NCBI RefSeq assembly: GCF_039596455.1
Contig: NZ_JBCNJR010000008.1
Coordinates: 25,508 to 89,507 of the forward strand
Length of the DNA stretch: 64,000 nt
Source of the DNA: Chitinophaga sp.
GTDB lineage: Bacteria; Bacteroidota; Bacteroidia; Chitinophagales; Chitinophagaceae
Direction of reading: 5' to 3'
This document shows, one piece after another, positions 34,362-38,438 of the stretch. The translations under genes and the position numbers were made by a program. How positions within the stretch are numbered: the first letter of the stretch is position 1; the number at the start of each line of letters is the position of its first letter. The notes under the pieces were generated by a model. The model made no database searches. It saw only the letters and a list, made by a program, of their open reading frames with translations, and was not told where the DNA came from.

Positions 34362-37300
34362 CTAAAACCCTAATGTTTCTGCCTGAAGGTCTACCGTATT
34401 CCAGTCGCTCACAGATACCACCAGGTCATGATTGACCGGCAGCTGCAGCGATACTTTTTTGTTCACCGGCGTATTGGCCGTTTTGTTCACAGAGAAAGCC
34501 TTCACTTCCACATTTTTCAGCGAGCTGCGGTTGCCCAGCCTGAACAGGCTGAGGTCTGGCGCCACCGTAATATCTGCCTCCGTGGCCGGGCCGCCGCCTA
34601 CGCCGCTGATAGCCAGCGAGCGTACCTGGTTGCCTACCAGCTTGGAGAAGGTAACGGTGAACTCTTTTTCCGCATGCGGCGCAAAGCGCACCTGTGAAGC
34701 GTCTGCGTTCATCATCAGCGTATCCCGGTGGCCGGGCTGGGTGGCCACGTTTTCCAGTTTGATGGTAGTACCGTCCGGCATAATGCTGTTGAAGGTGTAA
34801 GTGCCGCTGCCATTGCCTACAATATGGCGCGTATAGCTACGGTCTACGGGCAGCAGGTAGGCGCCGGGCACCAGGTAGCAGGGGTGCGAGTCCGGCACCT
34901 CACTGTAGATGCTGTTGTTGAAGCGGCCAACGCGCAGGCCGTTTTCATCCAGTATTTCCAGGTCTGCAGGGCTCAGCAGGAAGTCGATGATAAAGCTGGT
35001 GAGACCGAAGGGGCCGGAGAAGGGCAGGTCATGGTCCGCCAGCAGGTAATCTCCGTTGCTCATCTGGCCCAGCGTAATGTTATCGCTGCTGGAGAACTGT
35101 ATGTCCGTGCCGCCGTCAAAATAATCATAGTGCAGCACGCCGCCGTCCATCCTGAATTTGATGCGGCAGTTAGGATCATCCTGGTGGTTGCAATCCCAGC
35201 AATAGAGCTCTACGCCGTTCAGACTGGCCGTGGTGGTGGATCCATCTGCGCTCAGTTTGGGGCCGGGGTGGCCTTCCGGGTATACGAAGCGGTAAGGCAT
35301 GAGGCAATGGCTGGAGCTGAGACCGTCTATATACCCAGCGTCCCATACGGCGCCGGAGGGTATGAAGAACAGGAGGGGCGCCACGTTACGGTCGCAGCCG
35401 GTGAGGAACACCTTTTCAATTTCACGGGCCGTTTTTTCCACGCGGGCAATTTCCTGCCGGCTTTGGTCATGGAAGTGGATGAGGCTTTCGCGGCTGAGCA
35501 GTTTGCCGTGAATGGCAGTGAGCATTTTATGGATGCTGGCCTTGGAAAAAGTGACGGCGTCGTTTTCTCCCTTCCAGAGCTTGTCTGCCACAAAGCTGGC
35601 CATGGAGGTGCAGAAGCCGGTGGCCAGGCCGCCGTTGGCGGTGCCTTTCAGGAAGTGCTCATAGAAAATATAAAACGCGCCGGTGAGCACGGGGTGGCCA
35701 AAGAGGGGGTCAAGCAGCTCATGCCATACTTCGGCAGTGCCGAAGGTATCTTCAAACGTGCCCCAGTCAGGCACGCCGTCTGTGGGATTTTTGAAGGGCA
35801 GGTTGTTGGCGCCGAAGGTGAAGGGTATTTCCAGTATGCGCGGTTTGGAGGCGGTGCGCGTGTTGCTCACCAGCCCGTCAGGGTTCCTGACCGCTACGTT
35901 TACCGTGCCGCCGCTGCTGCCGGTACCGCCGGTGCCCGGCATGCGGAACACCACCTGGGTGGCGGTAACGCTGCTGGCGGGTATGGCGGCGCCGTTGATG
36001 AGCACGGAAGCGCCGGTGAGGAAGGCCTTGCCGGTGATGGTCACGTCCGCATTAGGTGGCAGACTGGCGGGCAGCGTGTCCAGCTGCGGTTTTACGCGGA
36101 TGGGTACGCGGTTGCTTTCCGTACCGTCTGATGCGCGCCTTACGTATACAGACTTCTGGCCGCCTGAAATATTGAGCGGCACGTTTACGGAAATGCTTTC
36201 ATCTGCGTTGATGGTGGGTACCAGGGTGGCCACGCCTTCTATCACCACCCGGTCATTATTGGCGAACTGCGTGCCGCGCAGGGTTATTTTATTGCCGGGG
36301 AATACTTCGGAGGGATTGATCTCTGTTACAAAAGGCCGGGTAAGCAGCTCTTCCCAGGCGTCTTCACTGAACTGGAAGAAGCGGTTTTCCGCGTCGCGGC
36401 CGGCCAGGGAAGCGTCAGGGCCTGTAGCGCCGGGTTGCCCTTTGGAGCCGTTGTGGCCGTTGCGGCCGTCTTTGCAGGTTTCACCGTTGCCGCTGCGGCC
36501 GCCAATGCCGCCGTTGCCGCCTTCACCGCCCGCGCCGCCGCGGCCGCGCTGGCCGCCCTGGTTTTTGAGGCGGAAGGCGTTGTTGGTAACGGTGGAGGCC
36601 AGGGTGCCGTCCAGCACGCCAATGGTGATGTTACCGCCTGCGCCGCCGTTGCCGCCGCGCCCGCCGTCACCGCCACGGCCGCCATTGCCGCCGTCTCCGC
36701 CATCTCCGGGGTCGCTCACGCAATGCCAGCCAAATACCCATATCCTTTTACCGCCAGCGCCGTCTGCGCCGTCTCCGCCGCGCCCGCCACGCTGGCCGGC
36801 GCCGCCTTTGATGCCGTCTTCCCCGTTCAGGTCCAGGTTAGGAATGTTGGTAAGGTCTTTCACCCACATTTCCAGTGCAGGCGCATTGCGGCCGCCTGCG
36901 CCCGGTATGCCTTCCGAGCCGGGTTGGCCGTTGGAGCCGTCCAGCCCGTCACGCGAATCATGTTTGGTATGGATACCGTTCCAGCCCTGGCCGTTGAGGC
37001 CGTCATCATTCAACCGCGGCGGAGTAGAGCCGCCGGGGCGCCGCCAGGTAATGGTGGCGTTGGGGCCGCAGATCACTCTTTCCGCTATGATGTACAGCTT
37101 TTCCACATCCGGTTCTATCACCAGCTGGGTGTTGGTAAGGTCCAGCACGCCGGCAATGATCACAGACGCGCCTATGGGCAATGTGACCATTTTAATGGGC
37201 TTGGGCGGCTGCGTGAGCATGGGCCAGGCTTCCGGCTTGCGGGCGGCTATCTGTTGCAGAAAGGTTTCCTTGTTGTTGAGCCGCAAGCCTGTACCACTGA

Positions 37301-38438
37301 GCTGCACTACTTCGCTGAGGCTGACGCCGGGGCGGAAAGCGGCCAGAGTGGGGCTGTTGCGGATCACGTCTTTAGGCAGGCGCACGCCGGTACGGTTCAG
37401 GATGGTGAGATGGTCCAGCCGGCCGGAGAGGCCTGTGGCGCCAATGGTATTAACAGGGGTGATAGGCCCCGGTGCGGGATGCGTTACGGTAGCCGCCGCC
37501 TTGAGCACGGCGCTGCTGTTGCGGTTGGGCAGGTAGCGCGCCAGCTGCTCTTTTTTCTGCGCGGCCGTAAGCGCCTTGAAGCCGCCGGCAATATTGCCCC
37601 AGTTCACATCTATGATCCTTGACTTGCGCGGGGCCACCAGCAGCTTGCCTTTGGGAATGGCGGTGGGCACTTTGACCTGCAGGGTGGAAAGATCGCTGAT
37701 CTTCTCCACGCCGGCGGCGTTCATGATTTCCTTGATGGGCTGCAGGTGGGCGCGGCTCTCGTCAAGGCTGGCTATAACAGATACCAGCGCGCCGGCGCCT
37801 ATTTTATTTTTGATGCTCGTTTCGAGGATCTTGGCGTCCCTTACCCGTTTGTTCCAGGCGGTGGCGGTAAAAGCGCCTTCGCGGATGGTGATGTTGCCGA
37901 TCTTCCCTTTGAACTGGTAGGCTTTGCCGTCCATGCCGGCGCCGGCCCTGAAGCCCAATTGGCCCACCGGTTCCAGGGCGCCGGTGGTTTTGGACGTGGC
38001 TACAGATTTGTCGTTCACCTCCAGCGTCATTTTGCCGCCCGCGTCTCTTGAGAAACGCACACGATAGGCTTTGCCGGCTGCCAGCGGGGTTTTGGCCGCC
38101 AGGCTTTGCCAGCCCGTTCCTTTTACGTGCACGCTGCCGGTGAGCAAACCTTTATTGTCGATGAAAAGCGCGGCTGGAGGGGATTGAGATTCCATGATGT
38201 TCTGCCGGCTGCCGGTAACGGCCTCGGGAGTGATCACAGCTTCCAGGGTAAAAGCGCCGCTGGTTTCCAGCCCCGGAATTCGGCCCATGTTGATGAAGCC
38301 TTTTGTGATTAAAAATTCGTCTTCTTTGGTGGAATGGGTAATGCTGCCATTCATGGTGATGGGCGTGCCCAGAAAGGAGCCGTCAAATACTCCGTTGTTT
38401 TCGGCACGCACAAACAGCAGCGTTTTAAGCTGTTCCAT
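34362..38438 (-). CDS. about 1358-aa multidomain protein: LamG-like domain, Gly-rich region, two IPT/TIG-like domains, putative papain-like Cys-His-Asp/Asn domain
   Basis: Uninterrupted ORF; ATG 38438 chosen after an AT-rich leader. Domain calls are by-eye motif recognition (FTLEAVITP, GxxGxxG/GGxGG runs, ITLRGTQF and VTITGKAF, GFCTSMA, SHCLMPY, YCWDCN). Confidence 0.8.
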   Translation of the reverse strand: MEQLKTLLFVRAENNGVFDGSFLGTPITMNGSITHSTKEDEFLITKGFINMGRIPGLETSGAFTLEAVITPEAVTGSRQNIMESQSPPAALFIDNKGLLTGSVHVKGTGWQSLAAKTPLAAGKAYRVRFSRDAGGKMTLEVNDKSVATSKTTGALEPVGQLGFRAGAGMDGKAYQFKGKIGNITIREGAFTATAWNKRVRDAKILETSIKNKIGAGALVSVIASLDESRAHLQPIKEIMNAAGVEKISDLSTLQVKVPTAIPKGKLLVAPRKSRIIDVNWGNIAGGFKALTAAQKKEQLARYLPNRNSSAVLKAAATVTHPAPGPITPVNTIGATGLSGRLDHLTILNRTGVRLPKDVIRNSPTLAAFRPGVSLSEVVQLSGTGLRLNNKETFLQQIAARKPEAWPMLTQPPKPIKMVTLPIGASVIIAGVLDLTNTQLVIEPDVEKLYIIAERVICGPNATITWRRPGGSTPPRLNDDGLNGQGWNGIHTKHDSRDGLDGSNGQPGSEGIPGAGGRNAPALEMWVKDLTNIPNLDLNGEDGIKGGAGQRGGRGGDGADGAGGKRIWVFGWHCVSDPGDGGDGGNGGRGGDGGRGGNGGAGGNITIGVLDGTLASTVTNNAFRLKNQGGQRGRGGAGGEGGNGGIGGRSGNGETCKDGRNGHNGSKGQPGATGPDASLAGRDAENRFFQFSEDAWEELLTRPFVTEINPSEVFPGNKITLRGTQFANNDRVVIEGVATLVPTINADESISVNVPLNISGGQKSVYVRRASDGTESNRVPIRVKPQLDTLPASLPPNADVTITGKAFLTGASVLINGAAIPASSVTATQVVFRMPGTGGTGSSGGTVNVAVRNPDGLVSNTRTASKPRILEIPFTFGANNLPFKNPTDGVPDWGTFEDTFGTAEVWHELLDPLFGHPVLTGAFYIFYEHFLKGTANGGLATGFCTSMASFVADKLWKGENDAVTFSKASIHKMLTAIHGKLLSRESLIHFHDQSRQEIARVEKTAREIEKVFLTGCDRNVAPLLFFIPSGAVWDAGYIDGLSSSHCLMPYRFVYPEGHPGPKLSADGSTTTASLNGVELYCWDCNHQDDPNCRIKFRMDGGVLHYDYFDGGTDIQFSSSDNITLGQMSNGDYLLADHDLPFSGPFGLTSFIIDFLLSPADLEILDENGLRVGRFNNSIYSEVPDSHPCYLVPGAYLLPVDRSYTRHIVGNGSGTYTFNSIMPDGTTIKLENVATQPGHRDTLMMNADASQVRFAPHAEKEFTVTFSKLVGNQVRSLAISGVGGGPATEADITVAPDLSLFRLGNRSSLKNVEVKAFSVNKTANTPVNKKVSLQLPVNHDLVVSVSDWNTVDLQAETLGF

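Follow-up and report, generated by a model that had tools for sequence, protein, structure and literature searches.

The gene and its start

The question raised by this locus is where a 1,358-aa Chitinophaga protein with extracellular-type domains and no visible export signal acts, and what it does there. We analysed a stretch of 64,000 nucleotides, referred to here as the window, and all positions are those of the window. The open reading frame at 34362-38438 on the minus strand is a genuine Chitinophaga gene, and a public database gene call matches its product with 100% identity over 1,358 aa. The first in-frame ATG gives a longer open reading frame (34362..38489, minus strand; 1,375 codons). 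Since both the public gene call and the N-termini of all homologues align to the ATG at 38438 (MEQLKTLLF...), the start was placed there, and the upstream extension is probably 5' UTR. The following features define the gene:

34362..38438, minus strand: coding sequence of the 1,358-aa protein from the open reading frame list, stop codon included
38439..38489, minus strand: in-frame upstream extension MLTISRIPYFITPKSTI, 17 codons from the earlier ATG; homologues begin at the equivalent of 38438
34317..34337, minus strand: intrinsic-terminator-like hairpin 25 nt past the stop codon, with 8 G-C pairs and then a T-run

An upstream start supplying a signal peptide, which would overturn the reading of an earlier note on this DNA, was sought in the extension; its 17 aa are not signal-like, and a stop codon lies beyond them. 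The hairpin sits between this gene and a convergent response-regulator gene, and the gene is a stand-alone unit with its own terminator.

Domain architecture

AF2 models of the protein were confident and multi-domain (pLDDT 87-89, pTM ~0.7). Combined with Pfam, Foldseek and homologue alignments, they gave the following map:

37869..38438, minus strand: LamG/concanavalin-A-like jelly roll, residues 1-190 (Pfam Laminin_G_3; AF2 pLDDT 85-98)
37494..37865, minus strand: small alpha/beta region, residues 192-315 (AF2 secondary structure; homologue alignment)
37179..37493, minus strand: variable, largely disordered linker followed by short helices, residues 316-420
37041..37178, minus strand: four-strand beta-cap (…SVIIAGVLDLTNTQLVIEPDVEKLYIIAERVICGPNATITW…), residues 421-466, preceding the Gly-rich domain
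36369..37040, minus strand: Gly-rich domain, residues 467-690, predicted to form a polyglycine-II (PGII; PPII-type) helix bundle that also has a few strands
36084..36338, minus strand: IPT/TIG domain 1, residues 701-785 (Pfam TIG; AF2 beta-sandwich; Ig-like Foldseek matches)
35823..36056, minus strand: IPT/TIG domain 2, residues 795-872 (Pfam TIG; NCBIfam CoaZ_rpt_PGGG; AF2 model)
34995..35813, minus strand: undescribed alpha+beta domain (Cys/His), residues 876-1148 (AF2 secondary structure; conserved columns)
35610-35612, 35307-35309 and 35193-35195, minus strand: C943, H1044 and D1082, a putative catalytic triad
34365..34994, minus strand: two C-terminal beta-sandwich domains, residues 1149-1358 (AF2 strands, pLDDT ~90-95)

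This layout could be read as a variable LamG "head", a "chassis" made up of the beta-cap, the PGII bundle and the two TIG domains, and a "warhead", which would comprise a Cys(Ser)-His-Asp(Asn) domain of hydrolase or transferase type and the two beta-sandwiches. The domains that the earlier note had picked out from the sequence were all borne out. Its LamG-like N-domain and its two IPT/TIG-like repeats agree in coordinates with our AF2 assignments (35823-36338 for the TIG pair), its enzyme-like domain and beta-rich C-terminus are visible in the AF2 secondary structure, and the several Cys it mentioned number 10.

The Laminin_G_3 match (E 1.4e-9) scored 38.7 bits against a Pfam cut-off of 27.6, and TIG was matched by Pfam in two stretches at E 1e-10. 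The LamG head is the most variable folded domain, with a mean identity of 38% as against 57-71% for the chassis and warhead. Its top PDB matches by Foldseek (E ~5e-8 over ~220 columns) were to the Hcn jelly roll, the N-terminal subdomain of clostridial neurotoxin Hc, which has a LamG/ConA-like fold; at 9-17% identity this is a generic ConA-like similarity. The neurotoxin likewise has no signal peptide, but its M27 zinc protease, translocation domain and beta-trefoil Hcc have no counterpart in the Chitinophaga protein. The small alpha/beta region carries a motif, IKEIMNAAGVEKISDLSTL, that recurs in distant relatives and in a Priestia protein described below. The linker is poorly conserved (mean identity 21-24%), and AF2 gave its residues 321-368 a pLDDT of 36-47.

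A predicted polyglycine-II bundle

The Gly-rich region seen earlier contains 32% Gly over residues 481-685 and is a conserved domain with a confident fold, predicted to be a PGII helix bundle. AF2 assigned it a pLDDT of 85-98, mostly 95-98, with DSSP helix and strand almost absent, and its sequence has a GGX/GXX triplet periodicity. The beta-cap in front of it is the most conserved segment of the protein (71% identity), with strands at 424-465 modelled at pLDDT >93. Across alignments of the PGII superfamily, about 36 Gly and two Cys (C573 and C655) are invariant.

Known glycine-rich PPII bundles include the Obg N-terminal domain, the snow-flea antifreeze protein, the phage S16 gp38 adhesin tip and the ALK/LTK glycine-rich domain, and receptor-binding tips of phages are among them (bioRxiv 10.1101/2023.11.25.568672; PMC13243192). 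The Chitinophaga domain, a predicted structure compared here as a model, resembles these in its triplet periodicity, its dozens of invariant Gly, its compact and confident fold lacking alpha helices or beta strands, and the binding-type architectures around it. It differs in its larger size (~270 aa), its four-strand beta-cap and interspersed strands, and its two invariant Cys, and it belongs to a separate family that numbers at least 820 protein clusters. Sequence profiles gave no link to Obg, snow-flea antifreeze protein, S16 gp38 or ALK/LTK. Among the nine stand-alone PGII members that were read, six have a Sec signal peptide and one has a TM segment with PKD domains. One stand-alone PGII gene adjoins nSTAND1/TCAD9 genes and transposases.

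A putative Cys-His-Asp catalytic domain

C943, H1044 and D1082 are invariant columns in 70 homologues. In distant relatives the first column holds Cys or Ser, the second is invariant and the third holds Asp or Asn, and this pattern is kept down to ~25% identity, with Ser confined to one sub-branch. Such persistence argues for a catalytic role. The domain also carries a GxCxx[FM][AS] motif, and the AF2 model places C943 at the N-terminus of a helix and H1044 at the start of a strand. The beta-sandwiches are present wherever the Cys/His domain is, even in a short form of ~530 aa.

Sequence profiles of residues 876-1148 found no match in Pfam or PDB and no link to any peptidase or transglutaminase family, and the 50 matches listed by Foldseek for the multi-domain models were all to Ig-like or LamG proteins. 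The domain appears to be arranged like papain or transglutaminase, a fold class that we infer from secondary-structure order and residue conservation only. We take papain- and transglutaminase-like Cys-His-Asp enzymes, such as animal transglutaminases and calpains, to be its candidate kin. In animal transglutaminases and calpains, which are large enzymes, beta-sandwich domains flank a Cys-His-Asp core. The likeness, one of residue and secondary-structure order, extends to the order Cys, His, Asp/Asn, to the placing of Cys at a helix N-terminus and of His at a strand start, to the GxCxx[FM][AS] motif, and to the Ig-like domains before the core and the beta-sandwiches after it. Unlike those enzymes, the Chitinophaga protein has a Cys-His spacing of 101 residues with a four-helix insertion, its family has Ser in place of Cys in one branch, and no Pfam or PDB profile matches it.

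Distribution and modularity of the family

The protein had been called an orphan. This did not hold: we found 79 full-length homologues (44-80% identity), and the family occurs in at least 86 species genomes among the 185,579 searched (~0.05% of species). A check of taxonomic distribution, which the earlier note had proposed, showed that the family extends over >10 bacterial phyla and into three archaeal MAGs; identities between phyla are 50-79%. The family is rare and scattered by horizontal transfer, and no neighbour gene is conserved across 80 related loci.

Parts of the protein also occur in other combinations. On Priestia plasmids the PGII and TIG chassis is joined to an SGNH/GDSL hydrolase rather than to the Cys/His domain. 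One such protein, Priestia megaterium WP_318619138.1 ("SGNH/GDSL hydrolase family protein", 882 aa), is 32-33% identical over query residues 436-860; it shares the alpha/beta element, the beta-cap, the PGII bundle, the two TIG domains and the leaderless state, but lacks the LamG head and ends in the hydrolase instead of the Cys/His domain and beta-sandwiches. In its short form, the Cys/His module has a 48-aa leader in common with adjacent PF04185 phospholipase-C-like (PLC-like) proteins, and at these loci it adjoins tail-fibre-like genes as well as enzymes with the common leader. Distant relatives that have both PGII and Cys/His domains carry signal peptides, and one of them, P0150, also a dockerin.

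Conserved chassis with alternative warheads (Cys/His or SGNH), a leader common to Cys/His and PLC-like enzymes and a sporadic, horizontally transferred distribution are features shared with polymorphic toxins and modular effectors. Unlike polymorphic toxins, the Chitinophaga protein has no adjacent immunity gene, no linked secretion system and none of the known trafficking domains such as PAAR, RHS, LXG or MIX.

Export and site of action

The absence of an export signal was confirmed and extends to the family: hydropathy detected no N-terminal hydrophobic signal or TM segment in the protein or in 78 homologues, and no long-form homologue has a signal peptide. The T9SS C-terminal domain, reported as absent before, gave no NCBIfam match at E ≤ 1 and is absent from the homologues as well, and Pfam found no RTX repeats. 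The leaderless long form is found in Gram-negative bacteria, in Gram-positive bacteria and in archaeal MAGs, with Paenibacillus and Actinobacteriota among the hosts, so T6SS, T9SS and OMV routes are not a general explanation.

We tentatively read the protein as an extracellular-acting, target-binding hydrolase or toxin freed by a non-Sec route, and give this somewhat less than an even chance. Its extracellular flavour comes from the LamG and TIG matches, the likeness to neurotoxin Hc, the signal peptides of PGII relatives (and the dockerin of P0150) and the invariant Cys pair. We infer a site of action outside the cell with roles in binding and catalysis. Its effector-like modularity comes from the Priestia SGNH warhead, the leader common to the short form and PLC-like proteins, and the variable LamG head. 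The effector proposed by the earlier note survives in spirit, in its modular, extracellular-type parts; no evidence pointed to any particular export route. Against an extracellular site, the leaderless state across diderms, monoderms and archaeal MAGs is explained most simply by cytoplasmic action, and no export partner is conserved with the long form. Nor would one expect to meet an offensive toxin in nitrifiers, sulfate reducers or methanogens.

It is possible, if unlikely, that the protein works in the cytoplasm as a single-gene conflict or anti-phage system of abortive-infection type, in which LamG, PGII and TIG would sense an invader protein intracellularly and the Cys-His-Asp effector would damage the cell. 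The protein is leaderless in every lineage, sporadic yet highly conserved across phyla, and works as a single gene, all of which fits; defence systems, too, typically swap effectors, as seen here with SGNH and PLC-like enzymes, one stand-alone PGII gene has nSTAND1/TCAD9 genes and transposases for neighbours, and a few flanking genes match restriction-modification, Shedu, mad2 or PD-T4-6 models. However, there are just 14 single PADLOC family matches in 128 flanking genes, with no recurrent family; no PADLOC model matches the protein itself, in which NTPase and nucleic-acid-sensing modules are absent; most of the neighbouring genes are of housekeeping or metabolic kind; and the domain types and signal-peptide-bearing PGII relatives indicate the outside of the cell.

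Rather improbable is a cytoplasmic or envelope-associated housekeeping-type enzyme, such as a transglutaminase-like cross-linker or a protease that targets proteins or polymers of the cell itself, with no part in inter-organism conflict. A patchy occurrence (~0.05% of species) combined with identities of 50-79% between phyla, a variable head and swapped warheads all speak against it, although the signal peptide is absent and the predicted compactness (pTM ~0.7) resembles that of large Cys-His-Asp enzymes with flanking beta-sandwiches.

We consider very unlikely a non-enzymatic surface adhesin or matrix protein with a purely structural Cys/His domain. LamG, TIG and PGII are binding-type modules, and Foldseek matches, via the Ig-like domains, include adhesins and surface glycan-binding proteins; yet the Cys/Ser-His-Asp/Asn pattern survives to ~25% identity, there is no signal peptide, anchor motif or repeat expansion, and the predicted fold is compact (pTM ~0.7) rather than beads-on-a-string.

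There is still less to recommend the idea that a dedicated machine (T6SS, T9SS, T1SS or an extracellular contractile injection system) exports the protein as its cargo, which the earlier note had suggested for T6SS or contractile systems. The large, leaderless protein and the short-form module beside tail-fibre-like genes and leader-sharing enzymes would suit such a role, but secretion or contractile genes are absent within ~20-30 kb in the window and none recur in the 80 loci, the T9SS domain and RTX repeats were not matched, and Paenibacillus, Actinobacteriota and archaeal MAGs are without such machines. A domesticated or remnant phage receptor-binding protein (tail fibre or spike) is scarcely credible: PGII bundles and LamG/Ig-like domains are frequent in such proteins (PMC13243192) and a leaderless state suits a phage structural protein, but there was no match among 50,697 phage records, no PHROG match and no flanking prophage gene, and a catalytic-type domain is conserved.

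If the protein is an extracellular hydrolase or toxin, as we tentatively favour, it would serve as a toxin, a bacteriocin-like protein or a lytic effector. It might leave the cell, lacking a Sec/Tat signal, through cell lysis or some other route; the LamG domain, the PGII bundle or both would then recognise a surface ligand, and C943, H1044 and D1082 may act on a peptide, amide or ester bond of the target, cleaving or modifying it.

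A conserved, self-sufficient gene

The target gene (window 34362..38438, minus strand) encodes a protein of 1,358 aa, here called the long form. It lies in an open reading frame of 1,375 codons (34362..38489, minus strand, in the ORF list of the window), and its start is the ATG at 38438 (MEQLKTLLF...). This start is backed by a public gene call (100% identity over 1,358 aa), and the N-termini of all homologues fit it too. The earlier note had raised the possibility of an upstream start supplying a signal peptide. The 17 additional upstream codons, MLTISRIPYFITPKSTI, have no resemblance to a signal peptide, and the frame is closed by a stop beyond them. 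A strong hairpin with a T-run follows the stop codon of the target gene at 34337-34317, and the flanking genes, for a LuxR-type response regulator (convergent) and an S9 peptidase (divergent), both lie on the plus strand; together these features indicate that the target gene is monocistronic. Three antisense ORFs (467, 617 and 395 aa; window 34728-37622, plus strand) overlap it and were rejected as composition artefacts, their Pro/Ala/Gly-rich translations being the mirror of a Gly-rich coding strand. We conclude that the target gene is real, conserved and self-sufficient. The catalytic-domain region of the window is 94% identical to that of Chitinophaga alhagiae T22, which assigns the window to a Chitinophaga, and sequencing runs that contain the target sequence come from plant, rhizosphere and soil metagenomes. 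When a soil metatranscriptome run (X17) was compared with window 33600-39400, scattered contigs of 90-97% identity were seen over 34308-36640 and 38374-38524, a weak hint, given possible DNA carry-over, that a close relative is transcribed in soil, start region included.

Distribution across phyla

The protein had been described as an orphan, a view that did not survive database searches: 79 homologues match it over their full length, with 1,320-1,414 aa and 44-80% identity. The survey of taxonomic distribution that the earlier note had proposed, run on a single genome for each species, put the number of carriers at 86 or more out of 185,579 species, a lower bound since the scan used two peptide patterns only. 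Carriers belong to many bacterial phyla (Bacteroidota, Ignavibacteriales, Alpha-, Beta- and Gammaproteobacteria, Acidobacteriota, Paenibacillus, Anabaena, Actinobacteriota, Planctomycetota, Chloroflexota, Myxococcota, Desulfobacterales and Nitrospira) and include three archaeal MAGs (loci L042, L051 and L059). The first of these is a 2.45-Mb Methanomassiliicoccaceae chromosome (OY760646.1) whose protein, P0053 (1,258 aa), covers 93% of the query, and the Cys/His-domain match of the archaeal relatives is 58-64% identical to the window protein. Unless the contigs were mis-binned, this implies transfer between bacteria and archaea. The window protein is 78-79% identical to those of Nitrosospira and Limnohabitans MAGs and 58-59% identical to those of C. 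pinensis and C. deserti. Since cross-phylum pairs can thus exceed within-genus pairs in identity, the sequences point to repeated horizontal transfer of the long-form gene. The gene is mobile across phyla, and across domains of life if the three archaeal MAG assignments hold.

Domain layout of the long form

Two AlphaFold2 half-models were built with 70-sequence alignments, one of residues 1-700 (pLDDT 87.5, pTM 0.72) and one of residues 681-1358 (pLDDT 88.7, pTM 0.69). The following layout was drawn from these models and alignment A1.

Domain layout of the target protein
Residues 1-190: LamG jelly roll
Residues 192-315: small alpha/beta region
Residues 316-420: variable linker, largely disordered
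Residues 421-466: four-strand beta-cap
Residues 467-690: Gly-rich domain
Residues 701-785 and 795-872: two TIG domains
Residues 876-1148: alpha+beta (Cys/His) domain
Residues 1149-1358: two beta-sandwiches

With a pTM near 0.7 on pieces of about 700 residues that each span several domains, the models suggest a compact particle and not an adhesin of beads-on-a-string type. How similar the homologues are to the window protein depends strongly on the domain, mean identity being 38% for LamG, 21-24% for the linker, 71% for the beta-cap, 65% for the Gly-rich domain, 57-59% for the TIG domains and 65% for the Cys/His domain, and the protein therefore consists of a variable head on a conserved core.

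All of the features that the earlier note had listed are present, about where it had placed them. Two Pfam families passed their curated cut-offs: PF13385 Laminin_G_3 (38.7 bits against 27.6, E 1.4e-9), in a region that is a jelly roll in the model and has Foldseek matches to ConA-like Hcn domains, and PF01833 IPT/TIG (41.9 bits against 20.9, E 1e-10), in two stretches that are modelled as beta-sandwiches with Ig-like Foldseek matches. The Gly-rich region contains 32% Gly across residues 481-685, and the several Cys number 10. Whole-protein searches of Pfam, NCBIfam, PADLOC, PHROGs and PDB sequences returned nothing besides LamG and TIG. Both half-models were compared by Foldseek with the PDB, and the C-terminal one also with BFVD; among the 50 matches listed for each, the C-terminal half yielded Ig-like tandems only and the N-terminal half ConA-like neurotoxin Hc domains only. 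As the models are multi-domain and the listed matches all Ig-like or LamG/ConA-like, the Gly-rich and Cys/His domains were not placed by this comparison. The Hcn-like jelly roll is the only part in common with the clostridial neurotoxin family, whose M27 light chain, translocation domain and Hcc had no Pfam or PDB match elsewhere in the target. Long-form members are named 'IPT/TIG domain-containing protein', 'LamG-like jellyroll fold domain-containing protein' or 'hypothetical protein' in the sources, and a literature search aimed at polyglycine-II bundles found no paper on the family.

A predicted polyglycine-II domain

According to the model, the Gly-rich region is a folded domain and not a linker. 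Residues 467-690 have a pLDDT of 85-98 (mostly 95-98) and almost no helix or strand by DSSP. They are composed of runs of GGX/GXX triplets (for example, the GGX run GDGGDGGNGGRGGDGGRGGNGGAGG) with short strands between, and about 36 Gly and two Cys (C573 and C655) do not vary among 14 sequences whose identity goes down to 29%. High pLDDT without DSSP helix or strand, GGX/GXX runs and invariant Gly and Cys are together the signature of a polyglycine-II (PGII; PPII-type) helix bundle, and we infer the PPII geometry from them. Few natural PGII bundles are known: Obg, arthropod antifreeze proteins, acetophenone and acetone carboxylases, the tip of phage S16 gp38, other phage tail domains and ALK/LTK (bioRxiv 10.1101/2023.11.25.568672; PMC13243192). 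No sequence-profile link was found to a solved PGII domain (Obg, gp38, ALK or antifreeze protein); the Gly-rich segment matched nothing in Pfam at E <= 10, and PGII alignments A5 and A8 matched only artificial Gly or Gly-Ser linkers and collagen among PDB profiles. A collagen-like triple helix was considered and rejected, the runs being short and interrupted, the predicted domain compact and monomeric, and a Collagen Pfam match absent.

A profile of the beta-cap and Gly-rich domain together recovered at least 820 clusters at E <= 1e-5 among 8,000 candidates scored. Most of the 120 members listed are stand-alone proteins of about 300-370 aa (for example, P0301, P0288, P0316, P0390, P0284 and P0396, and those at loci L092-L095), and none of these has a Pfam annotation. 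Nine proteins of this type were read. Six carry a clear Sec-type signal peptide, one has a transmembrane anchor and PKD domains, one, from Thermoproteota, has no signal, and one, likewise lacking a signal, joins PGII to a TIG-like C-terminus; the six signal peptides indicate that the PGII domain is usually exported where it stands alone. At locus L095 the stand-alone gene lies in an apparent operon with genes for a 435-aa unknown protein and a Trypsin_2 protease, beside nSTAND1/TCAD9, ankyrin and transposase genes. At loci L092-L094 it lies amid small genes, including GcrA- and NERD-domain genes.

A probable Cys-His-Asp enzyme domain

The earlier note had claimed an enzyme-like domain, and an alpha+beta domain with conserved C943, H1044 and D1082 is indeed found at residues 876-1148 and is probably an enzyme. 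Neither Pfam nor NCBIfam nor PDB profiles matched this segment. Four fragments scanned against Pfam returned nothing at E <= 10, and alignments A4 and A7 of the domain gave nothing meaningful against PDB profiles. The domain is rare, as its profile detected only 98 proteins at E <= 0.001 among 1.84 billion representative proteins.

In 70 close and 22 distant relatives, the column of C943 contains Cys or Ser and that of D1082 Asp or Asn, and H1044 never varies. The corresponding motifs are G-x-C-[ST]-[GSA]-[FM]-[AS], with Ser in one branch (GYSSGF), [SA]-H-x-[VL]-[VL]-P, in which the His is invariant, and Y-[DN]-x-N. P1027, G978 and Q992 also survive to about 25% identity, as read from hmmalign and MAFFT. 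In the model, helix 943-956 of a helical lobe begins with C943, H1044 stands just before the strand starting at 1045, and D1082 comes right after strand 1077-1081. A nucleophile that starts a helix, residues in the order Cys-His-Asp/Asn and an interchange of Cys and Ser indicate a hydrolase or transferase of predicted papain/transglutaminase-type fold. The order of nucleophile, His and Asp/Asn is that of papain-like and transglutaminase-like enzymes; no member family of that class was matched by Pfam, NCBIfam or PDB profiles, and Foldseek gave Ig-like folds only among the 50 matches listed. The core is preceded by Ig-like domains and followed by beta-sandwiches, an arrangement that recalls animal transglutaminases and calpains. 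Two other candidate sites were rejected. A zincin site, H906-E-L-L-D910...H915 (HExxD...H), occurs in the close family only and is absent in distant relatives that keep Cys, His and Asp. A nucleophile four residues upstream in relatives (GL-C-TG against GLATGF-C) was also considered; both hmmalign and MAFFT put the relatives' Cys or Ser on C943.

The order of beta-cap/PGII, TIG, Cys/His domain and beta-sandwich is retained in distant relatives (about 1,000-1,600 aa), and LamG is missing from them. Some have an N-terminal HHH_3 domain, four (P0150, P0154, P0165 and P0170) have a signal peptide, and a dockerin was detected in P0150.

Exchange of modules

We refer to the beta-cap, PGII and TIG domains as the chassis and to the Cys/His domain with its beta-sandwiches as the warhead. 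A leaderless Priestia megaterium plasmid protein of 882 aa, annotated 'SGNH/GDSL hydrolase family protein', has the alpha/beta element, beta-cap, PGII and two TIG domains as in the target (32-33% identity over residues 436-860) and a C-terminal GDS(L) hydrolase in place of the Cys/His domain. Its gene was found on seven Priestia plasmids and was the only match in plasmid records.

Genes at related loci
L091:6569-9217, plasmid NZ_CP137804.1: Priestia SGNH fusion gene
L046:3213-4799 and 5900-8311; L053:7797-9464 and 10713-13067; L083:9600-11738: leader-sharing genes
L088:7918-9973; L089:8279-9967; L046:2119-3192 and 4744-5682: Gly-rich-repeat genes near the short form

The warhead also occurs by itself. 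This short form, the Cys/His domain with two beta-sandwiches (about 505-555 aa), makes up at least 60 clusters, and its carriers include Methylomonas montana and Candidatus Electrothrix. All five short-form proteins read begin with a 48-aa leader (MPSLRSSGKIVG.SVSIRQLAK...LSLR.LL.ALGV), and the same leader heads an adjacent protein of 710-800 aa, a PF04185 phospholipase-C-type phosphoesterase, at three unrelated loci, in Pirellulales, a betaproteobacterium and a deltaproteobacterium. The leader resembles a tag for targeting or packaging that the two enzymes have in common; Pfam has no match for it, and its HMM did not hit the long form. Directly upstream of short-form genes are genes for Gly-rich-repeat proteins with GxGVxGE-type repeats, 'LGIGTxNPxxKLHV'-type N-termini and a common C-terminal domain of about 140 aa (…NADCAEDFD…VSGAG…GIVLDKQ…). 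These proteins resemble tail fibres, and one had a faint Peptidase_G2/IMC match.

Counting the three leader-sharing loci, genes of PF04185 type lie within 8 kb of a family gene in 6 of 80 loci (L008, L037, L040, L046, L053 and L083), a proximity that is above chance by rough estimate, and the window itself has a PF04185 phosphoesterase with two PLipase_C_C domains (26622-29144, plus strand) about 5-8 kb from the target gene. Exchangeable hydrolases on a conserved part are the logic of polymorphic effectors and also of many defence systems.

Genomic neighbourhood

Around the target gene lie genes for a PLC, a HipA-like kinase, a two-component system, an S9 peptidase, an outer-membrane beta-barrel protein and an ECF sigma factor; secretion or contractile-system genes were not found among its window neighbours.

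Other features of the window
38-19889 / 38-21094, plus strand: polysaccharide-utilisation locus (PUL)
29574-30857, plus strand: HipA-like kinase gene (HipA_C, E 3.6e-48)
31634-34309, plus strand: genes for two small proteins, then a HisKA_3 histidine kinase and a LuxR-type response regulator

The PUL contains two SusC/SusD-like pairs, two GH2-like genes, a GDSL esterase, a GH88-like gene and a PL8 polysaccharide lyase, which suggests that it degrades a uronic-acid-containing glycan; no link between it and the target gene was found. The small proteins of the 31634-34309 unit (175 and 221 aa) have no Pfam match, and the second appears to be hydrophobic, of multi-pass type. The unit converges on the target gene, and both end close to one terminator hairpin.

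Five loci examined by gene call had no conserved neighbour, and 80 loci examined by ORF calling, all-against-all BLAST and clustering showed within-genus synteny only, besides the PF04185 association. In a set of 128 flanking genes drawn from 32 diverse loci, each Pfam family occurred four times at most, the matches being response regulators, kinases, dehydrogenases, glycosyltransferases and similar. PADLOC matched 14 families in the same genes, once each (raw counts, compatible with weak enrichment), and the other flanking genes are metabolic or regulatory.

Export signals

The earlier note had seen no Sec, Tat or lipoprotein signal, and hydropathy agrees: within the first 40 aa the 10-residue Kyte-Doolittle value peaks at 0.87. 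Strand 1 of the LamG fold forms the N-terminus, and by hydropathy neither the target nor its 78 homologues have an N-terminal hydrophobic segment or transmembrane helix. Cargo of the T9SS is restricted to Bacteroidota and carries a type A or B CTD and a Sec signal. The target has no such signal, a search with NCBIfam CTD models found none at E <= 1, in agreement with the earlier note, and the family also occurs in Paenibacillus, Proteobacteria, Acidobacteriota and archaeal MAGs. Linkage to T6SS (VgrG/PAAR/Hcp) or contractile-system (sheath, tube or baseplate) genes was not found among window genes from 38 to 44749, and no neighbour family recurs in the 80 loci. As for RTX/T1SS, Pfam reports TIG and Laminin_G_3 only, the Gly runs are GGX triplets and not RTX GGxGxDxUx nonapeptides, and no transporter gene is adjacent.

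Possible roles

A binding-type head, a PGII/TIG chassis and a probable Cys-His-Asp enzyme are firmly combined in the target. As to where it acts, we tentatively favour an extracellular-acting, target-binding hydrolase or toxin, freed by lysis or another route. An extracellular role is favoured by the LamG and TIG domain types, the signal peptides of stand-alone PGII proteins and of distant relatives with the full architecture, the two invariant Cys within the PGII domain, the lipolytic and esterolytic company of the modules, and the occurrence of PGII bundles in phage receptor-binding tips. The earlier interpretation is partly supported: an effector-like, extracellular-type, leaderless protein fits these results, while the proposed export routes (T6SS, contractile systems and vesicles) found no support here and cannot account for the family in general.

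A cytoplasmic conflict or defence protein is rather unlikely. It would account for a long form that is without a signal peptide throughout, in Gram-negatives, Gram-positives and archaeal MAGs, and for the absence of a partner gene; against a defence role, the target matched no PADLOC-DB 2.0 model and the 128 flanking genes of the 32 loci do not place it consistently in defence islands. An endogenous enzyme, in which the probable catalytic domain would serve the cell itself, seems quite unlikely. We consider a non-enzymatic adhesin improbable beside the conserved C943, H1044 and D1082 and the compact models, and cargo of a dedicated secretion machine very improbable beside the export searches. 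A phage remnant is barely credible, neither phage records nor PHROG models having given a match.

To return to an extracellular hydrolase or toxin, a bolder version can be formulated. The beta-cap/PGII unit might be a new, widespread extracellular domain class (at least 820 clusters), among the largest natural polyglycine-II assemblies, and the long forms single-polypeptide AB-type toxins moving between bacterial and archaeal genomes, in which the chassis would mediate release, entry or both without a dedicated secretion system and deliver interchangeable warheads (a new Cys/Ser-His-Asp fold, SGNH or PLC-like). That all of this holds together is a long shot.

Judged from its sequence, the target is predicted to function as a modular effector or hydrolase with two undescribed domains, and its anatomy and distribution are unusual. 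The present annotation ('IPT/TIG domain-containing protein' or 'hypothetical protein') conceals both a probable enzyme domain and a Gly-rich domain predicted to be structured. If the readings proposed here are true, the first would be a new, unannotated Cys(Ser)-His-Asp(Asn) catalytic domain that is undetected by Pfam, NCBIfam and PDB profiles, and the second would lengthen the very short list of natural PGII helix-bundle domains by a large family conserved in bacteria and archaea, a list relevant to protein design and to phage- and toxin-type surface recognition. Under the same condition, a transferable chassis-plus-warhead design would come to light that crosses phylum boundaries, and apparently that between bacteria and archaea too, as a single leaderless gene, which makes it testable how such proteins exit the cell and whether they exit at all.
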